From the NCBI GenBank assembly GCA_963851265.1, contig CAWKNZ010000002.1, forward strand, positions 1,152,001 through 1,216,000: a stretch of DNA of 64,000 nucleotides, given 5' to 3'. Shown in pieces: positions 23,453-28,547 of this stretch. The position numbers were made by a program, and so were the translations under genes. Under the pieces are notes generated by a model. That model did not search any database, had not been told where the DNA came from, and saw only the letters and a list, made by a program, of their open reading frames with translations. This DNA is from an uncultured Gemmatimonadales bacterium. GTDB lineage: Bacteria; Gemmatimonadota; Gemmatimonadetes; Gemmatimonadales; Gemmatimonadaceae. Within the stretch, counting starts at the first letter, position 1; each line of letters opens with the position of its first letter.

Positions 23453-25258
23453 GTGCCAACACTCCCGCCCACGCAGGTTCCCTGGCAAGTCACCGGCAAT
23501 CACTGGCTGTCGCTGCCGTGCATCCACCCGGCGGACGGCGCGGTTCACGCGGTCGGGGTACTTCACCGCGGGGCGCGCGCGGCCGTCGAGTTCGCCGGCG
23601 ACGCCGAGTTCCTCGCCGGGACCGGGCCCGCGTTGCTGCGCCCGGTGCTGCGCGTGGACGGCGTGGTGCGCGAGGTCGGCGGTGAGGGCGGAGCGATCGC
23701 GTGGGAGCGGGCCATGCACTGGCTGCCGACGTTCACGTCGACGCTCGCCGATTCCCTCGTCGTGCGCGGAACGATCTTCGCGCCGCACGGGCGCGACGCC
23801 GACCTGTCCGGCGCGGTGTACACGATCGCCGTCGAGAACCGGGGCGCCGCCGCCGTCGACATCGAACTCGCGCTCGAGGGCACGCTCGGGCACCGGCAGC
23901 TGCGCGTCCGCTCTCCACGCCCGTTCGACGACGCGCCGCGCGTGCACCGCGGCGCCGACGACGTGCTGGTGCTTGAAGGCGCGGCGCTCCCGGGACTCGT
24001 CGCAATCGCACTCGGGGCGGACGGCGAGGCGCGCGTCGAGATCGACGACGCCGGAGCGGGTGGCGCGCCGCGGTACGCGGTCCGACGCGCGTTCCGGGTC
24101 GAGCGGGGCACGACGCAGCAGGCCGCCTTCTATCTCGCCGCCGGCCCGGAGCGCGACGGCGCCCAGGCGACGGTCGCGGCGATGCGTCGCCGCGGATGGC
24201 GTGAGCTGCTCGCCCGCACGCGCGACGCGCTGCGCGACCTCGAGCAGACCACCGGCAACGCCGCCATCGACCGGCTGCTCAATCGAAACCTGCTGTTCGC
24301 GTACTTCTACGGCTGCGGGCGCGCACTCGACGACGCGCATTTCTACCTCGCGCGCACGCGCTCTCCCGCCCACGGACTCGGAGTCACGGTCCGCGACTGG
24401 GAGGCACTCACGTGGACGCTGCCGGCCGTACAGTTGGCCGACCCGGGCCTTGCGCGTGAACTCCTGCTGCGTGCGTGCGAGCTGCTCGGCTACGCGCCCG
24501 GCGACGGCGTGCGCTACCTCGACGGCACCTTGTTCGAGCCCGGATTCTCGCTCGAGGGTGCGGCGGCGTATGCCCTCGCCGCGGATCGCTACGTGCGCGA
24601 TACCAACGACGACCAGGTGATCGAGGAGGGCGTGCTCGCCGACACTCTCTACGCGGCCCACGACGACATCGCGGCACGGCGCGACGAGCGGCAGCCGCTC
24701 TACTCCACCGCGGTCGGCGTGTCGGGCGACCCGGTCGCGCATCCGTACACGCTGCACGGGAACGCGGTTGTCGCGCAGGCGCTCGCCGTCTTCCGGCGCA
24801 CGCTCGACGAGGAGACCGCGAAGTCGGTCCAGGACCCGGAGGCCGTGCGCGCCGCGCTCGCGCGTCAGTTCGGCGTCGAACGCGAGGGGAAGACGGTGTT
24901 CGCCGCCGCGATCGACCTCAAGGGCGCGAGCGCCGAGCGCGACGACCCGGTCGGCTCGGCGCTGTGGCTCCCGCTGTACGACGCGGTGGAACGCAGCGAC
25001 TCGACGTACCGCCGCACCGCGCGCGCGTTAGGCCCCGAGCACGCGGGCCAGCTCGCCGCACAGATCGCGCGCCTCCTCGGGCCCGACGCGCCACAGATGC
25101 TCCAGTGGCTGCGCCGCGCGCCTCTCGACCAAGGCGTCGCGGCGGAGTTCGTCGACGAGGAGGGGCGCGCGACGGGAAACGGCGGCGACGCCGCGCTCTC
25201 CGGGCTGCTCGCCGCGACCGTGTGGCACGCCGTGCACGTCCTCGGGGTCACGCCGTAA
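23453..25258 (+). CDS. Six-hairpin glycosidase-like protein (GH125/DUF1237-like), possibly degenerate
   Basis: NLLFAYFYGCGRALD, RTRSP, WTLPAVQLADPGLARELL, YLDGTLFEPGFSLE, DPVAHPYTLHGN, APLDQGVAAEFVD recall metal-independent alpha-mannosidase family proteins. Assigned from recalled motifs only. Confidence 0.6.
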   Translation: MPTLPPTQVPWQVTGNHWLSLPCIHPADGAVHAVGVLHRGARAAVEFAGDAEFLAGTGPALLRPVLRVDGVVREVGGEGGAIAWERAMHWLPTFTSTLADSLVVRGTIFAPHGRDADLSGAVYTIAVENRGAAAVDIELALEGTLGHRQLRVRSPRPFDDAPRVHRGADDVLVLEGAALPGLVAIALGADGEARVEIDDAGAGGAPRYAVRRAFRVERGTTQQAAFYLAAGPERDGAQATVAAMRRRGWRELLARTRDALRDLEQTTGNAAIDRLLNRNLLFAYFYGCGRALDDAHFYLARTRSPAHGLGVTVRDWEALTWTLPAVQLADPGLARELLLRACELLGYAPGDGVRYLDGTLFEPGFSLEGAAAYALAADRYVRDTNDDQVIEEGVLADTLYAAHDDIAARRDERQPLYSTAVGVSGDPVAHPYTLHGNAVVAQALAVFRRTLDEETAKSVQDPEAVRAALARQFGVEREGKTVFAAAIDLKGASAERDDPVGSALWLPLYDAVERSDSTYRRTARALGPEHAGQLAAQIARLLGPDAPQMLQWLRRAPLDQGVAAEFVDEEGRATGNGGDAALSGLLAATVWHAVHVLGVTP

Positions 25259-25303: not shown

Positions 25304-25376
25304 GCGGGAATAGCTCAGTTGGTAGAGCACAACCTTGCCAAGGTTGGGGTCGCGGGTTCGAGTCCCGTTTCCCGCT
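25304..25376 (+). tRNA. tRNA-Gly (anticodon GCC); CCA not encoded
   Basis: GCGGGAA/TTCCCGC acceptor stem, D-arm TAGCTCAGTTGGTAGAGC, anticodon arm CAACC-TTGCCAA-GGTTG, T-loop GGTTCGAGTCC. Confidence 0.97.
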
Positions 25377-25463
25377 CTCGTACGTGGCGCGGACGTCCTC
25401 CATGGACGTCCGCGCTCGTCGTTTCTGCGCGCGGTACGCGCCGCACCAGCGCTGCCGCGAACG

Positions 25464-25546
25464 GCCCGGATGGCGAAATCGGTAGACGCATGGGTCTTAA
25501 AAACCCTGGCCCTCTGGGCGTGCGGGTTCGAGTCCCGCTCCGGGCA
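25464..25546 (+). tRNA. tRNA-Leu (anticodon TAA), long variable arm; CCA not encoded
   Basis: GCCCGGA/TCCGGGC acceptor stem, D-loop TGGCGAAATCGGTAGACGCA, anticodon GGGT-CTTAAAA-ACCC, variable arm GCCC-TCT-GGGC, T-loop GGTTCGAGTCC, discriminator A. Confidence 0.94.
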
Positions 25547-25633: not shown

Positions 25634-26530
25634 TCAGAACGGCAGGTCGTCGCCGTCGATCGGAGAGCCTAACGGCGCCGCGTCGAACCGCGGCTCGGGC
25701 GATGCCGCGGCTGCCGCGCGCGCACGCGACGGTGCGCGACCGTTCGCCCGCGCCGGCGGAGTTCCGGCGGCTGCCGGCGAGGCTGGCACTTCGGCCGGTT
25801 CCCCGGGGCGCGGCGGCCAAACGACGCCGTCACAGCTTCGATCGCGACACTTGAAGTCAGGCGCCTTCGGATTGCGCTTGGTGAGCCGGTTGTCCCACAT
25901 CCGTCCGCTGCACTTCGGGCACGTCGGGTCGTCGGTAGCCCCCGCGCCGGACTGGGCGGCCGACGCGAACTCATCATCGTCGGCGGGGATCGGCTCGACA
26001 CTCGGCTGACGCGCGGTGACCGGCCGTCGCGTGTCGGCCGCAGCGGTCCGTCGAGCGTCGGCAGCGGCCGGCTCGTCGACGGGGCGCGGCACGTCCGGGC
26101 CGTCGACGACCACCCAGTTCGGCTCGCGCCCGTTGAGCTCGTGACCGATCCCGAAGCGCACCGCGGCGCGCGCGAGCGCGTCGTTCGCCGCGCTCTTGTA
26201 GTCGGGACCGGTGCCGACGTCTTCCCGGATCACGCCGAGGATCTGAAGGCGAGCCTTGAACGCGCATTCCGGTGTGTCACCGGCACGCGTTGGCAGCGAG
26301 GGGAGTAGCTCGAGCGTGAGATCCCACTCGCCGGGAACGACGCGATCGAGGCGCTCGCGGACGGCATTCGCGCCGGGATGCGCGACGTAGCGCACGTACC
26401 ACGCGCCGTCGCGCGCGACGGGTCCGCCGTCCTGCCGCCACGCGGTCGCGTCGGCGTCGAGGGGCGCGGCGAGCGCGGACCAGAGGTTCGGCTTGTCGAG
26501 GGAGGTGGGGGCGTCGTGGCGTGCAATCAT
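25634..26530 (-). CDS. Rad52/Rad22-family (DdrA-like) single-strand annealing protein with C-terminal C4 zinc ribbon/PDF-like motif and acidic DDLPF tail
   Basis: LAAPL...W...AH..ANAVRERLDRVVPGEW...KARLQILGVIREDVG...YKSAANDALARAAVRFGIG aligns by eye with the Deinococcus DdrA core. CPKC-x20-CRDRSC near the C-terminus. SD-like GAGAG before ATG. Confidence 0.85.
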   Translation of the reverse strand: MIARHDAPTSLDKPNLWSALAAPLDADATAWRQDGGPVARDGAWYVRYVAHPGANAVRERLDRVVPGEWDLTLELLPSLPTRAGDTPECAFKARLQILGVIREDVGTGPDYKSAANDALARAAVRFGIGHELNGREPNWVVVDGPDVPRPVDEPAAADARRTAAADTRRPVTARQPSVEPIPADDDEFASAAQSGAGATDDPTCPKCSGRMWDNRLTKRNPKAPDFKCRDRSCDGVVWPPRPGEPAEVPASPAAAGTPPARANGRAPSRARAAAAASPEPRFDAAPLGSPIDGDDLPF

Positions 26531-26675
26531 GCGACTCTCATCCGTCCAGTCTGAGGCTGCCCCGGTCGAGGGGGCGTGAGGTGAACCGCTACCGCGCGGA
26601 ACGTGTGCGTCGGGTGCCGGCCGCCGCGCGCGACGTGCACCCCAGGTGCGACCGCGAAGTCGCCGTACGTGGTGG

Positions 26676-27656
26676 TCAGCGCCCGCGCGCGTGTCCCGCG
26701 CGTTGCGCCTTGAGCTCGGCGTGCACGTCGCGCACGGCGACGCAGGTCGCGCCGTGCACGCAGTACCAGCCGTGGCGGTCGAAGAACACGAGATGCACGG
26801 TCGCCGTCCCCGCGACCTGCTCGTCTACCCGGTACAGCTGTTCGACGCACGTGCTCGGGCCGCAGCGCGCGCACGGGTCGAGCGCCTTGATCCGCACGAG
26901 CCGCGTGCCGGCCGTTGTTCCGGTGGCCGGTTTCCGACCGCCACGCCCGCGTGTGCCGGTCGACGTTGCGAGTCGCGCGGCAACACGGCCCAGCGGCTTC
27001 TCGTCGGCCACCGCCCGCCGCGCGAGCTTCGAGCGCGCCGACGAACCGGAAGCGATTTCCTTCGATGCGCCCCGCACGGGCACGCCTCGCACCTGCACCC
27101 CGAGCGCCGATTTCGATGCGTTCGTTCTGCCGGGCGCGACGCGAGCGGGCTCGCTCACGCGAGCTGACGACTTGCGCCCGACCACTTTCGGGGGTTGCAA
27201 AATCGCGGTCGCCGGCCTCGGCGCGACGGCGCGTGAGCGCGCCGTCGGCGGTTGAGCGCGGTCGGACGCGGCGCGCGTCGTCGAACCCGCGCCCGCGCGC
27301 GCGTTGGAAGGCGCAGACGCGGGCGCGGCGCCACGCGTCCGCGCTGTCTTGGCCGGCGCACCGACATCGCGCGCGCGCGGTGATCGCGGCGAGCCGGTGC
27401 TCGCCGCCGGGCGCGTCGGGGTCGGCACCGCGCGCGATACGGCGGCCTTCGTCGTCGCGACGCGCCCCACCCCCTTGCCGCCCTGCGCGCGTGTCGAGCT
27501 CGGCGACGCGCCGCGCGTGGCCACGACCGCAACGCTCTTCGACGCCGGTGCGCGCTTGTGTGCGGCCGCTCCGGTCTCTCCAGAACGCGACGGCGCGGCC
27601 TTGGCGATCGGCGACTTCGTGGGGGTACGGCGTGACGCAGAACGCGTGGACGGCAC
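26676..27656 (-). CDS. Hypothetical protein: long basic Ala/Arg/Ser/Thr/Lys-rich disordered region plus a small Cys/His C-terminal domain
   Basis: Open frame of 326 aa. Globular-looking C-terminus LDPCARCGPSTCVEQLYRVDE...VHLVFFDRHGWYCVHGATC. Strong promoter 40 bp upstream of the start. Confidence 0.65.
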   Translation of the reverse strand: MPSTRSASRRTPTKSPIAKAAPSRSGETGAAAHKRAPASKSVAVVATRGASPSSTRAQGGKGVGRVATTKAAVSRAVPTPTRPAASTGSPRSPRARDVGAPAKTARTRGAAPASAPSNARAGAGSTTRAASDRAQPPTARSRAVAPRPATAILQPPKVVGRKSSARVSEPARVAPGRTNASKSALGVQVRGVPVRGASKEIASGSSARSKLARRAVADEKPLGRVAARLATSTGTRGRGGRKPATGTTAGTRLVRIKALDPCARCGPSTCVEQLYRVDEQVAGTATVHLVFFDRHGWYCVHGATCVAVRDVHAELKAQRAGHARGR

Positions 27657-27695
27657 GTCGGCGGGGGCAGGAGAACGGGCGGCGTATCGGACCGA

Positions 27696-27724
27696 ATATT
27701 ACCCGAAAGTCGCGGTTCGGTCAA
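27696..27724 (-). promoter_or_regulatory. Sigma70-type promoter for the basic protein gene (and possibly the Rad52-like gene)
   Basis: Minus strand TTGACC (27724-27719), 17-bp spacer, TAATAT (27701-27696). Confidence 0.7.
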
Positions 27725-28016
27725 CGCGCCACGGACCCGCCGGACCGATCCGGCTAGTAGACGCTAAGTCGCTGCGCCGTAATGTTTTACACGGGATGGC
27801 GGCGACGAGTTCCGGCGGTGGATCCGCGGCCGCTCGCGAGCCCAGTCGCGCCGGACCACGCCGGCCGCCACGCCGCGTCCGTCGATTCGCCGATTGCCGA
27901 CCGGCAGGGCGCGAGAGTCGCGCGCCCGCATCGCCGCGGGGGGCGATCCGCGACGCGGTACGTGGCGCGCGACGTGCAACCGCGCCCCGACGACCACCCC
28001 TACCACGAGGATCGAC

Positions 28017-28547
28017 ATGGACCGCGGACGAGACTTTTTGAAGAGCCAGGTCAACAACGCCGTCATGCAGCACCAGACCTTCCTCAAGAATCTGGAGGAC
28101 CACGAGGGCCAGGCCGAAGACCAGCGCTTCCGCGACCTCTGCAGCCGGTACATCCCGGAGATGCGCGAGCACCAGCGGATGCTGGAGCAGTACCAGCAGT
28201 CGATTGGCGCCGAGGTGGGCGCCGGCAAGAAGGCGCTCGGCGCCGCGCTCGGCATCGCGCGCGACCTCGCCGACGCCACGCGCGAGAGCGACTTCCTCCG
28301 CCTCGTAGGTGACATCGTCACCGCGCGGCAGTCCGAGGACACCTTCGGCACGTTCGCCGCCGTGGGCGCGCAGATCGGCGAGCCGCAGCTCACGCACCTC
28401 GGCGAGATGGGGCAGCGGCATCACGAGCAGTACGTGCGTGACGCGAACAACCTCGTCGCGCAGCTCTTCGTCGACCACGTCCGCGACACAGCGCCCGGCG
28501 CGTCCAGCACGAGTTCGCTCGGCTCCGAGCCGCGCGCCGCGTACTGA
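28017..28547 (+). CDS. Ferritin-like four-helix-bundle protein (YciE/DUF892-like), putative stress protein
   Basis: 176 aa, all-helical, with His/Glu clusters (MQHQ, EMREHQ, QSED, QRHHEQ). SD GAGGA before ATG 28017. Strong GC3 codon bias. Confidence 0.65.
   Translation: MDRGRDFLKSQVNNAVMQHQTFLKNLEDHEGQAEDQRFRDLCSRYIPEMREHQRMLEQYQQSIGAEVGAGKKALGAALGIARDLADATRESDFLRLVGDIVTARQSEDTFGTFAAVGAQIGEPQLTHLGEMGQRHHEQYVRDANNLVAQLFVDHVRDTAPGASSTSSLGSEPRAAY

Follow-up and report, generated by a model that had tools for sequence, protein, structure and literature searches.

A Rad52-fold protein of Gemmatimonadaceae with a plant OSB-like PDF finger and an SSB-like tail: a candidate damage-induced, phage-derived ssDNA repair hub

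How a bacterial chromosome came to encode, in one chain, a domain of the Rad52 type, a zinc finger resembling the PDF motif of plant OSB proteins and a terminus resembling that of SSB, and what such a protein might do, is the question raised by P0001, a 298-aa protein encoded at 25634..26530 on the minus strand of the window (i.e., the whole 64,000-nucleotide stretch of Gemmatimonadaceae DNA analyzed here) and organized as Rad52 domain, linker, zinc-PDF finger, linker and acidic tail. A previous sequence-only reading had proposed that this protein may combine annealing, a second ssDNA-binding module and recruitment of SSB partners, and that it could be a bacterial counterpart of the plant organellar toolkit; all the motifs which that reading quoted are present in an intact ORF of 298 codons. 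Of the three outcomes that the reading had named as refuting, none was observed: the finger matches OSB repeats, the tail is conserved in relatives, and our search of the mostly open-access literature found no paper that describes a PDF motif in prokaryotes or the combination of Rad52 domain, finger and tail. On balance, we favor the explanation that P0001 is a ssDNA repair hub, likely induced by damage and likely derived from phage, which would unite a Rad52 ring, a ssDNA-binding finger and a tail that recruits SSB partners.

The Rad52 core and its altered groove residues

The Rad52/22-family core spans residues 13-142 (26105..26494, minus strand), as delimited by the structure model, fold search and alignments, and is followed in the structure model by a predicted extra helix at residues 154-168 (26027..26071, minus strand). 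The AlphaFold model shows a confident N-terminal domain and two disordered stretches (residues 182-198 and 245-293) separated by a small folded island (about residues 204-240). P0001 itself matches Pfam Rad52_Rad22 (PF04098) weakly (E 0.043; 14.2 bits vs. the curated cut-off of 20.3), one relative (L002) passes (E 1.8e-10, 41.4 bits), and sequence searches of solved structures returned chance matches alone, with no residue-level alignment to RAD52 obtained. The model, in turn, was matched to human RAD52 by both Foldseek (E 1.4e-5) and VIA (Z 10.8, rmsd 4.1, 131 aligned), and by VIA to Mgm101 (Z 9.6) and phage 80alpha Sak (Z 9.2) as well, with dsRBD folds close behind (Z 8-9). Judged from the model, the N-terminal domain adopts the fold of Rad52, as the sequence-only reading had it.

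Like the Rad52/22 annealing proteins (PF04098; human RAD52, yeast Mgm101, phage 80alpha Sak), P0001 has this same fold (residues 4-165) and a flexible C-terminal extension, and its relatives pass the Pfam cut-off; it differs from them by the zinc-PDF finger, a SSB-like tail of its own and the absence of three invariant residues. That is, H51, A120 and N133 of P0001 replace Y, K and Y, which are invariant in 29/29 other Rad52 cores, and these are the only changed invariant positions relative to those 29 cores (26 of which are distant phage cores); R121 is retained. P0001 is the sole match to its own sequence within the source genome, and 2,577 relatives were found among 8,000 candidates scored. 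In a set composed of P0001 and the best 120 of these relatives, a lineage of 12 proteins that includes P0001 shows the changes of Y51 to H and K120 to A, whereas Y51 and K120 are retained in all 109 others. Core identity is 65% between this lineage and the other relatives vs. 84% among those others, the corresponding values for the finger being 88% and 92%; inside the 12-member lineage, identity is 90% for the core, 95% for the finger and 61% for the following helix.

By its position, Y51 presumably matches the hairpin tyrosine of RAD52. The end points of the structural alignment (model residue 130 to chain residue 162), as opposed to a residue-level alignment, suggest that positions 120/121 of P0001 correspond to the helix 3 pair K152/R153 of RAD52, which touch ssDNA and are important for annealing (PMC6137706). 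Mgm101 is described as being without the K152 ion pair (PMC13110880); hence, A120 need not harm the groove and, by analogy, the K120 to A change may be tolerated in P0001. The annealing part of the combined function proposed for P0001 is doubtful for this allele, given the loss of three family-invariant residues and the report that the Rad52-family protein DdrA does not anneal (PMC6300522).

A second Rad52 above the Pfam cut-off is present in the source genome and in both same-genus genomes. The copy of the source genome (G000:C2:827633-828331; L543, L551) is without finger or tail, has its own copy of the upstream CCGAA box described below, shares 29% identity with P0001 across 107 residues and keeps the Y, K and Y. 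A second copy does not by itself force the residue change since genome G219, which also has a second copy, encodes a fusion protein above the cut-off; in two genomes, the fusion is the only Rad52 match.

Deinococcus DdrA is similar to P0001 in that its Rad52-family gene is chromosomal and is governed by a damage-response operator, as inferred for P0001, but it is controlled by IrrE/DdrO (PMC6300522) rather than by the likely LexA control of P0001. The available text of the same source describes no finger or tail for DdrA, and a search of P0001 against NCBIfam gave no match. Rad52 proteins from Antarctic soil that are longer than DdrA and have a C-terminal insertion (PMC10140301) may include the P0001-type family.

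The zinc-PDF finger and the SSB-like tail

The finger comprises residues 204-240 (25811..25921, minus strand), based on an alignment of 39 copies, the match to a plant profile and the model (pLDDT 84.7). Its characteristic residues are C204 (whose codon begins at 25921), C207, W212-D213-N214-R215, K218, P224-D225-F226-K227, C228, C233 and W238 (finishing at 25817), with the four cysteines, W212, D213 and W238 being invariant in 39/39 aligned copies, and the C4-finger/PDF pattern occurs in all 121 proteins of the set composed of P0001 and its best 120 relatives of the 2,577. Both the zinc ribbon and the PDF motif of the sequence-only reading are there, interleaved in a single domain rather than forming separate modules.

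The likeness to plant OSB proteins that the reading had pointed to was borne out. A plant-only profile, built from 16 plant/algal OSB repeats, found P0001 alone among the 59,387 frames of the genome (E 9e-7, 30.2 bits; next frame 7.3 bits), with the match confined to positions 13-32 of the profile's 56 (about 20 shared positions); the full PDF motif of about 50 residues with its N-terminal helix is absent from P0001, and a CxxC knuckle takes the place of the helix. Zinc-less phage forms (below) score far higher than P0001 on the same profile (54-71 bits). In the opposite direction, a profile of the zinc form scored 26-32 bits on the best repeat of 9/10 eukaryote-like proteins and 16 on the tenth, vs. 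at most 9.8 bits across 3,010 shuffled or reversed sequences, and hhalign joined the zinc and zinc-less profiles at 97.8%. The P0001 segment WDNRLTKRNPKAPDFK agrees with a Malus repeat in 15 of 16 residues, and single-repeat matches to plant PDF motifs range from E 0.003 to 9 at the 5.8-billion scale. A profile from four zinc-less viral proteins pulled out plant and algal OSBs, with cluster members of the retrieved plant proteins carrying the names OSB2, OSB3 and OSB4; it is important to note that the plant OSB set was obtained with this phage-derived profile, which favors similar repeats. A Logan protein of 743 aa (P0124) has at least seven PDF-like repeats and is without a SSB domain.

In terms of structure, the finger model resembles a zinc ribbon and its top structural matches are weak, the best being the C-terminal ribbon of topoisomerase I (Z 3.7, rmsd 2.9, 40 aligned), which is in the range of generic zinc ribbons; the match to the GRF ribbon of NEIL3, at just Z 2.0, is in this range too and does not identify the finger as a GRF finger. 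Foldseek with the finger model returned nothing at E below 1.8 and generic zinc ribbons only. No family model for the finger was found in Pfam, PHROGs or NCBIfam, and the finger alone had no match among 50,697 annotated phage records; an Atlas search (scores 0.80-0.81) gave leads only, and a short-protein search returned chiefly fragments.

Plant/algal OSBs thus share with P0001 the W-D-N-R..K.NPKAPDFK core and the closing Trp, with the repeats in tandem in some, but they carry an N-terminal OB fold, while P0001 has a Rad52 fold and no OB fold (no SSB match), and an N-terminal helix where the P0001 finger has its four-Cys knuckle. Moreover, PMC4166229 describes the PDF motif as restricted to green plants, whereas the finger occurs in bacterial and phage hosts. 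From these comparisons, we conclude that the P0001 finger is homologous to the OSB PDF motif, and that the plant motif is likely of phage or bacterial origin; the main text of a 2026 study of OSB evolution (PMC13393729) contains none of the strings 'bacteri', 'phage', 'prokaryot' and 'origin'. The PDF motif of OSB1 was sufficient for ssDNA binding (PMC6963530), and the predicted zinc finger of P0001 likely grips ssDNA.

The protein ends in IDGDDLPF (25637..25660, minus strand), a SSB-like acidic tail, as previously read, that is shared with the host SSB and conserved in relatives. Its last five residues are identical to those of the host SSB tail (DDDDDLPF), and among 24,693 six-frame frames of at least 100 aa, only the host SSB and P0001 end in [DE]x0-2[ILVM]PF; such a terminus is kept in 110 of the 121 proteins (P0001 and the best 120 of 2,577). 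The tail is preceded by a disordered linker (pLDDT below 50, residues 245-293). Two OSB-like proteins (P0122, P0205) likewise end in acidic PF tails. In viral Erf proteins, the tail goes with the finger: a PF tail was found in 7/9 finger-bearing vs. 2/49 finger-less clusters (p 4e-6), the 58 clusters being derived from 290 redundant viral Erf frames and not fully independent. If the module replaced SSB, finger-bearing clusters should have lost a neighboring ssb, but such a loss was not significant (ssb near 0/8 vs. 10/40 finger-less clusters, p 0.18) in a test restricted to clusters with enough flank (about 3 kb) and based on a profile seeded on the host SSB, which misses other SSB types. Finger proteins L028, L049, L051 and L089 have no PF tail.

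RecQ and ExoI are partners of the C-terminal tail of SSB. RecO and PriA also bind this tail (PMC5928155), and the P0001 tail, by its identity to that of the host SSB, likely recruits such partner repair enzymes. In characterized systems, it is the annealase that engages the SSB tail (PMC5928155; PMC11846896), for example, through the helical domain of Sak80alpha (PMC11846896); P0001 instead bears a tail of its own.

The operon, its upstream repeat and its chromosomal setting

Upstream of P0001 lies a gene (26676..27656, minus strand, start uncertain) encoding a basic low-complexity N-terminus and a C..C-x-HG-x-x-C domain (26706-26906) for which a SWIM-like relationship is a lead only (Atlas); no Pfam family was found for 25 members of this domain, and none in PHROGs or NCBIfam. 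This partner gene is present in 73/80 genome loci (the best 80 of 251 stretches, below), with four of the seven misses having less than 330 nt of upstream sequence, and in 0/90 viral finger loci. Conversely, in 41/46 genomes with a close partner homolog, the partner lies within 1.3 kb of a finger. An obligate pair was considered and rejected, as 4 fetched loci have a close partner homolog that is not followed by the fusion, and 8 have a distant one. For many relatives, MRA closes the partner sequence and the stop codon of the partner overlaps the Rad52 start codon, which suggests translational coupling with the Rad52-finger gene, and GGATGAGAG stands near the Rad52 start in 48/71 upstream regions (window 26512-26540; L104-L183). 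Neither the conserved partner nor the likely LexA box described next had been part of the sequence-only reading.

A sigma-70-like promoter (27696..27724, minus strand) stands ahead of the partner and the P0001 gene, and its TTGAC-led element is present in 44/65 loci. Its -10 element is overlapped by a CCGAA-N6-CCGAA direct repeat (27692..27707, listed without strand), a likely LexA box and the only strict copy within the 64-kb window. The repeat is found in 63/65 upstream regions vs. 0/59 control stretches and sits ahead of the partner; a motif search of the 220 nt before the Rad52 start recovered partner coding sequence only. Since the motif was discovered in those 65 loci, the lexA promoters provide the independent test: two perfect copies stand before lexA in 6/6 Gemmatimonadaceae genomes (G000:C2:1247940 and 1247964; L565-L569), and none before a second LexA-like gene in 4/4 genomes. 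The source genome has 23 strict sites, which is not above the 9-40 found with other spacers. Eight of these precede lexA (two sites), ruvB, uvrA, two genes for TIGR03916 repair radical-SAM proteins (G000:C3:67740-69140 and C7:671478-672806), the second Rad52 and the P0001 operon, and two are at an error-prone polymerase cassette, one of them probably within the coding region. The remaining 13 are near unrelated genes or not tied to any gene, which counts against the explanation we favor. A one-mismatch copy precedes recA, and ssb has none. Taken as a pattern of sites, CCGAA-N6-CCGAA is likely a LexA box for Gemmatimonadaceae and, because it stands twice before lexA in all six genomes, the P0001 operon is likely SOS-induced.

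In terms of distribution, the finger was found in 54/150 Gemmatimonadaceae genomes (three matches being weak), a patchiness that also counts against the favored explanation, and, in a phylum sample, in 14/53 Gemmatimonadaceae genomes vs. 0/197 genomes from eleven other families. In GTDB contigs, 251 finger stretches were confirmed by scanning; of the best 80, 78 were titled Gemmatimonad, one uncultured bacterium and one Acidobacteriota, with an in-frame Rad52 core in 77 (three cut or shifted) and a PF tail in 75. Breaks of the type seen at L129, with the finger gene seemingly frame-shifted through either an assembly error or decay, were noted at L009, L133 and L175.

Chromosomal loci of the P0001 type have housekeeping neighbors in conserved order, and the chromosomal copy is therefore settled and outside a prophage; a prophage setting was rejected on the same grounds. 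The neighbors include a convergent tRNA-Leu(taa) (25464..25546, plus strand), conserved and outside the system, which is found no more than 1.5 kb downstream in 39/78 loci, and near it a tRNA-Gly(gcc) (25304-25377). A 601-aa protein with a weak GH125 match (E 0.004) is encoded at 23453-25258 of the window (plus strand) and is a downstream neighbor in 45 loci. On the other side, a divergent gene with a weak DUF4142 match (27894-28547, plus strand), upstream in 38 loci, may share the box-holding intergenic region with the P0001 operon.

Mobility of the finger, proposed mechanism and rival explanations

Viral contigs contained 38 and 52 finger loci in two partly overlapping sets. Among 39 finger proteins picked for diversity, the partner domain was ERF in 11 (one below the cut-off), Rad52 in three, RecT in two and Gp3-like in one, and 22 were without a Pfam partner domain, which again counts against the favored explanation; in one genomic copy, the finger is joined to a Sak4-like AAA_24 domain. 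Loci with two fingers in tandem are present in 17/151 genomes, and the five examined (L008, L196-L199) encode stand-alone proteins with an acidic PF tail, one of which has a CCGAA box within 350 nt upstream. The finger is, in other words, a mobile module among phage annealing proteins, and because of this mobility, a phage protein that has been domesticated is a likelier identity for P0001 than the counterpart of the plant toolkit that the sequence-only reading had suggested. A shuffled C-terminal domain (HTH) across annealase classes provides a precedent (PMC8093625). The core of one viral Rad52-finger protein is about 60% identical to that of P0001 and its gene lies ahead of a replication initiator and DnaB, a position that makes a phage source likely, with the direction being what we infer from it. 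P0001 also recalls the phage ssap-ssb modules (Sak4-SSB of HK620, erf-ssb, rad52-ssb), in which an annealase is accompanied by a ssDNA binder with an acidic PF tail (PMC5928155; PMC8093625); the binder of those modules is a separate OB-fold protein, whereas P0001 has binder and tail in one chain, the binder being a finger of 37 residues.

The finger is also fused to three phage families, phrog_10048 (L010, L021, L039), phrog_11717 (L040, L046) and phrog_22961 (L029, L089), which, by their place in the annealase slot, are likely unrecognized annealases. Five viral proteins (L048-L051, L080) have a cysteine-less PDF core after a helix-like stretch and a N-terminal domain without known family; all four loci that were checked have this gene flanked by an exonuclease and a DnaB-like helicase, and three of them also have a primase. 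These zinc-less proteins may represent a new kind of phage SSB or annealase.

Under the explanation that we favor, DNA damage would release LexA from its site at 27692, and co-transcription of the partner and P0001 genes would follow. The Rad52 domain, by analogy with its family, would oligomerize as a ring, the fingers of which may catch ssDNA as the homologous OSB PDF motif does, while the tails, being identical in their last residues to that of the host SSB, may dock tail-binding repair enzymes; that is, the annealase would supply its own mini-SSB rather than bind the tail of the host SSB. Annealing is likely in those relatives whose groove is intact. In the P0001 lineage, because the groove is altered, most of the binding likely falls to the finger, and annealing may be weak; compare OSB1, whose OB fold has reportedly lost binding.

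Several alternatives deserve consideration. It is possible, but unlikely, that the whole family is an end protector or anti-recombinase that coats and shields ssDNA without annealing. DdrA, a Rad52-family ring, guards 3' ends in this manner (PMC6300522), OSBs block microhomology joining (PMC6451138), and the second Rad52 above the Pfam cut-off in the source and both same-genus genomes is consistent with such a role for P0001. However, Y51 and K120 are retained in 109/109 other close relatives, the finger also rides on the Erf and RecT annealase families, and the two genomes in which the fusion is the only Rad52 match are difficult to accommodate. Slightly less probable still is a finger that binds protein, as a pocket for SSB tails, with the tail of P0001 itself as a ligand that inhibits the protein or links rings. 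The SSB tail is engaged by the C-terminal domains of phage annealases (PMC11846896; PMC13110880), and the finger takes this C-terminal position and is coupled to the PF tail, but the plant PDF motif is reported to suffice for ssDNA binding, and some finger proteins (L028, L049, L051, L089) are tail-less.

That the tail is a decoy, with the many tails of a ring sequestering SSB partners and thereby slowing replication or nucleases during SOS (or, in phages, diverting them), appears improbable. The identity of the last five residues to the host SSB tail and the stand-alone two-finger-plus-tail proteins of 17/151 genomes would fit, while the tie of the tail to DNA-binding and annealing domains and a box in common with uvrA and ruvB would not. 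We give little credence to convergence on the plant motif, i.e., an ordinary zinc ribbon that has arrived at a short basic-aromatic hairpin, notwithstanding that just about 20 positions align and that the fold matches of the finger are generic zinc ribbons, since 15/16 residues are the same as in the Malus repeat, and the zinc-less phage proteins reach 54-71 bits on the plant profile and are joined to the zinc form by hhalign at 97.8%. The least probable alternative, and a very improbable one, is that P0001 is a decaying phage relic without function in its lineage. The drop in core identity (65% vs. 84% among the other relatives) and the patchy presence of the finger among genomes are in line with decay, but the lineage itself keeps its core (90%) and finger (95%) far better than the following helix (61%), and the box, the partner and the synteny are all retained.

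On a longer time scale, we tentatively consider a scenario that, in our estimate, falls somewhat short of an even chance. The PDF motif would have come from a phage module of finger and acidic tail, a bolt-on mini-SSB for any annealase class; in phage replication modules, the zinc knuckle would have become a helix, a form that green algae then fused to a bacterial SSB. Independently, a copy borne on Rad52 would have been domesticated by Gemmatimonadaceae as part of their SOS regulon, with the finger of the P0001 lineage taking over DNA binding from the ring.

The OSB PDF motif controls genome stability in plant mitochondria and has had no stated origin; the phage and bacterial versions, with zinc and without, are a candidate source, as well as a small domain for work on structure and binding. 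Annealases that bring a tail and a finger with them lend themselves directly to tests in recombineering, and the P0001 fusion inverts the usual logic in which an annealase binds the tail of SSB. For Gemmatimonadaceae, the likely LexA box renders the damage response of the family testable.
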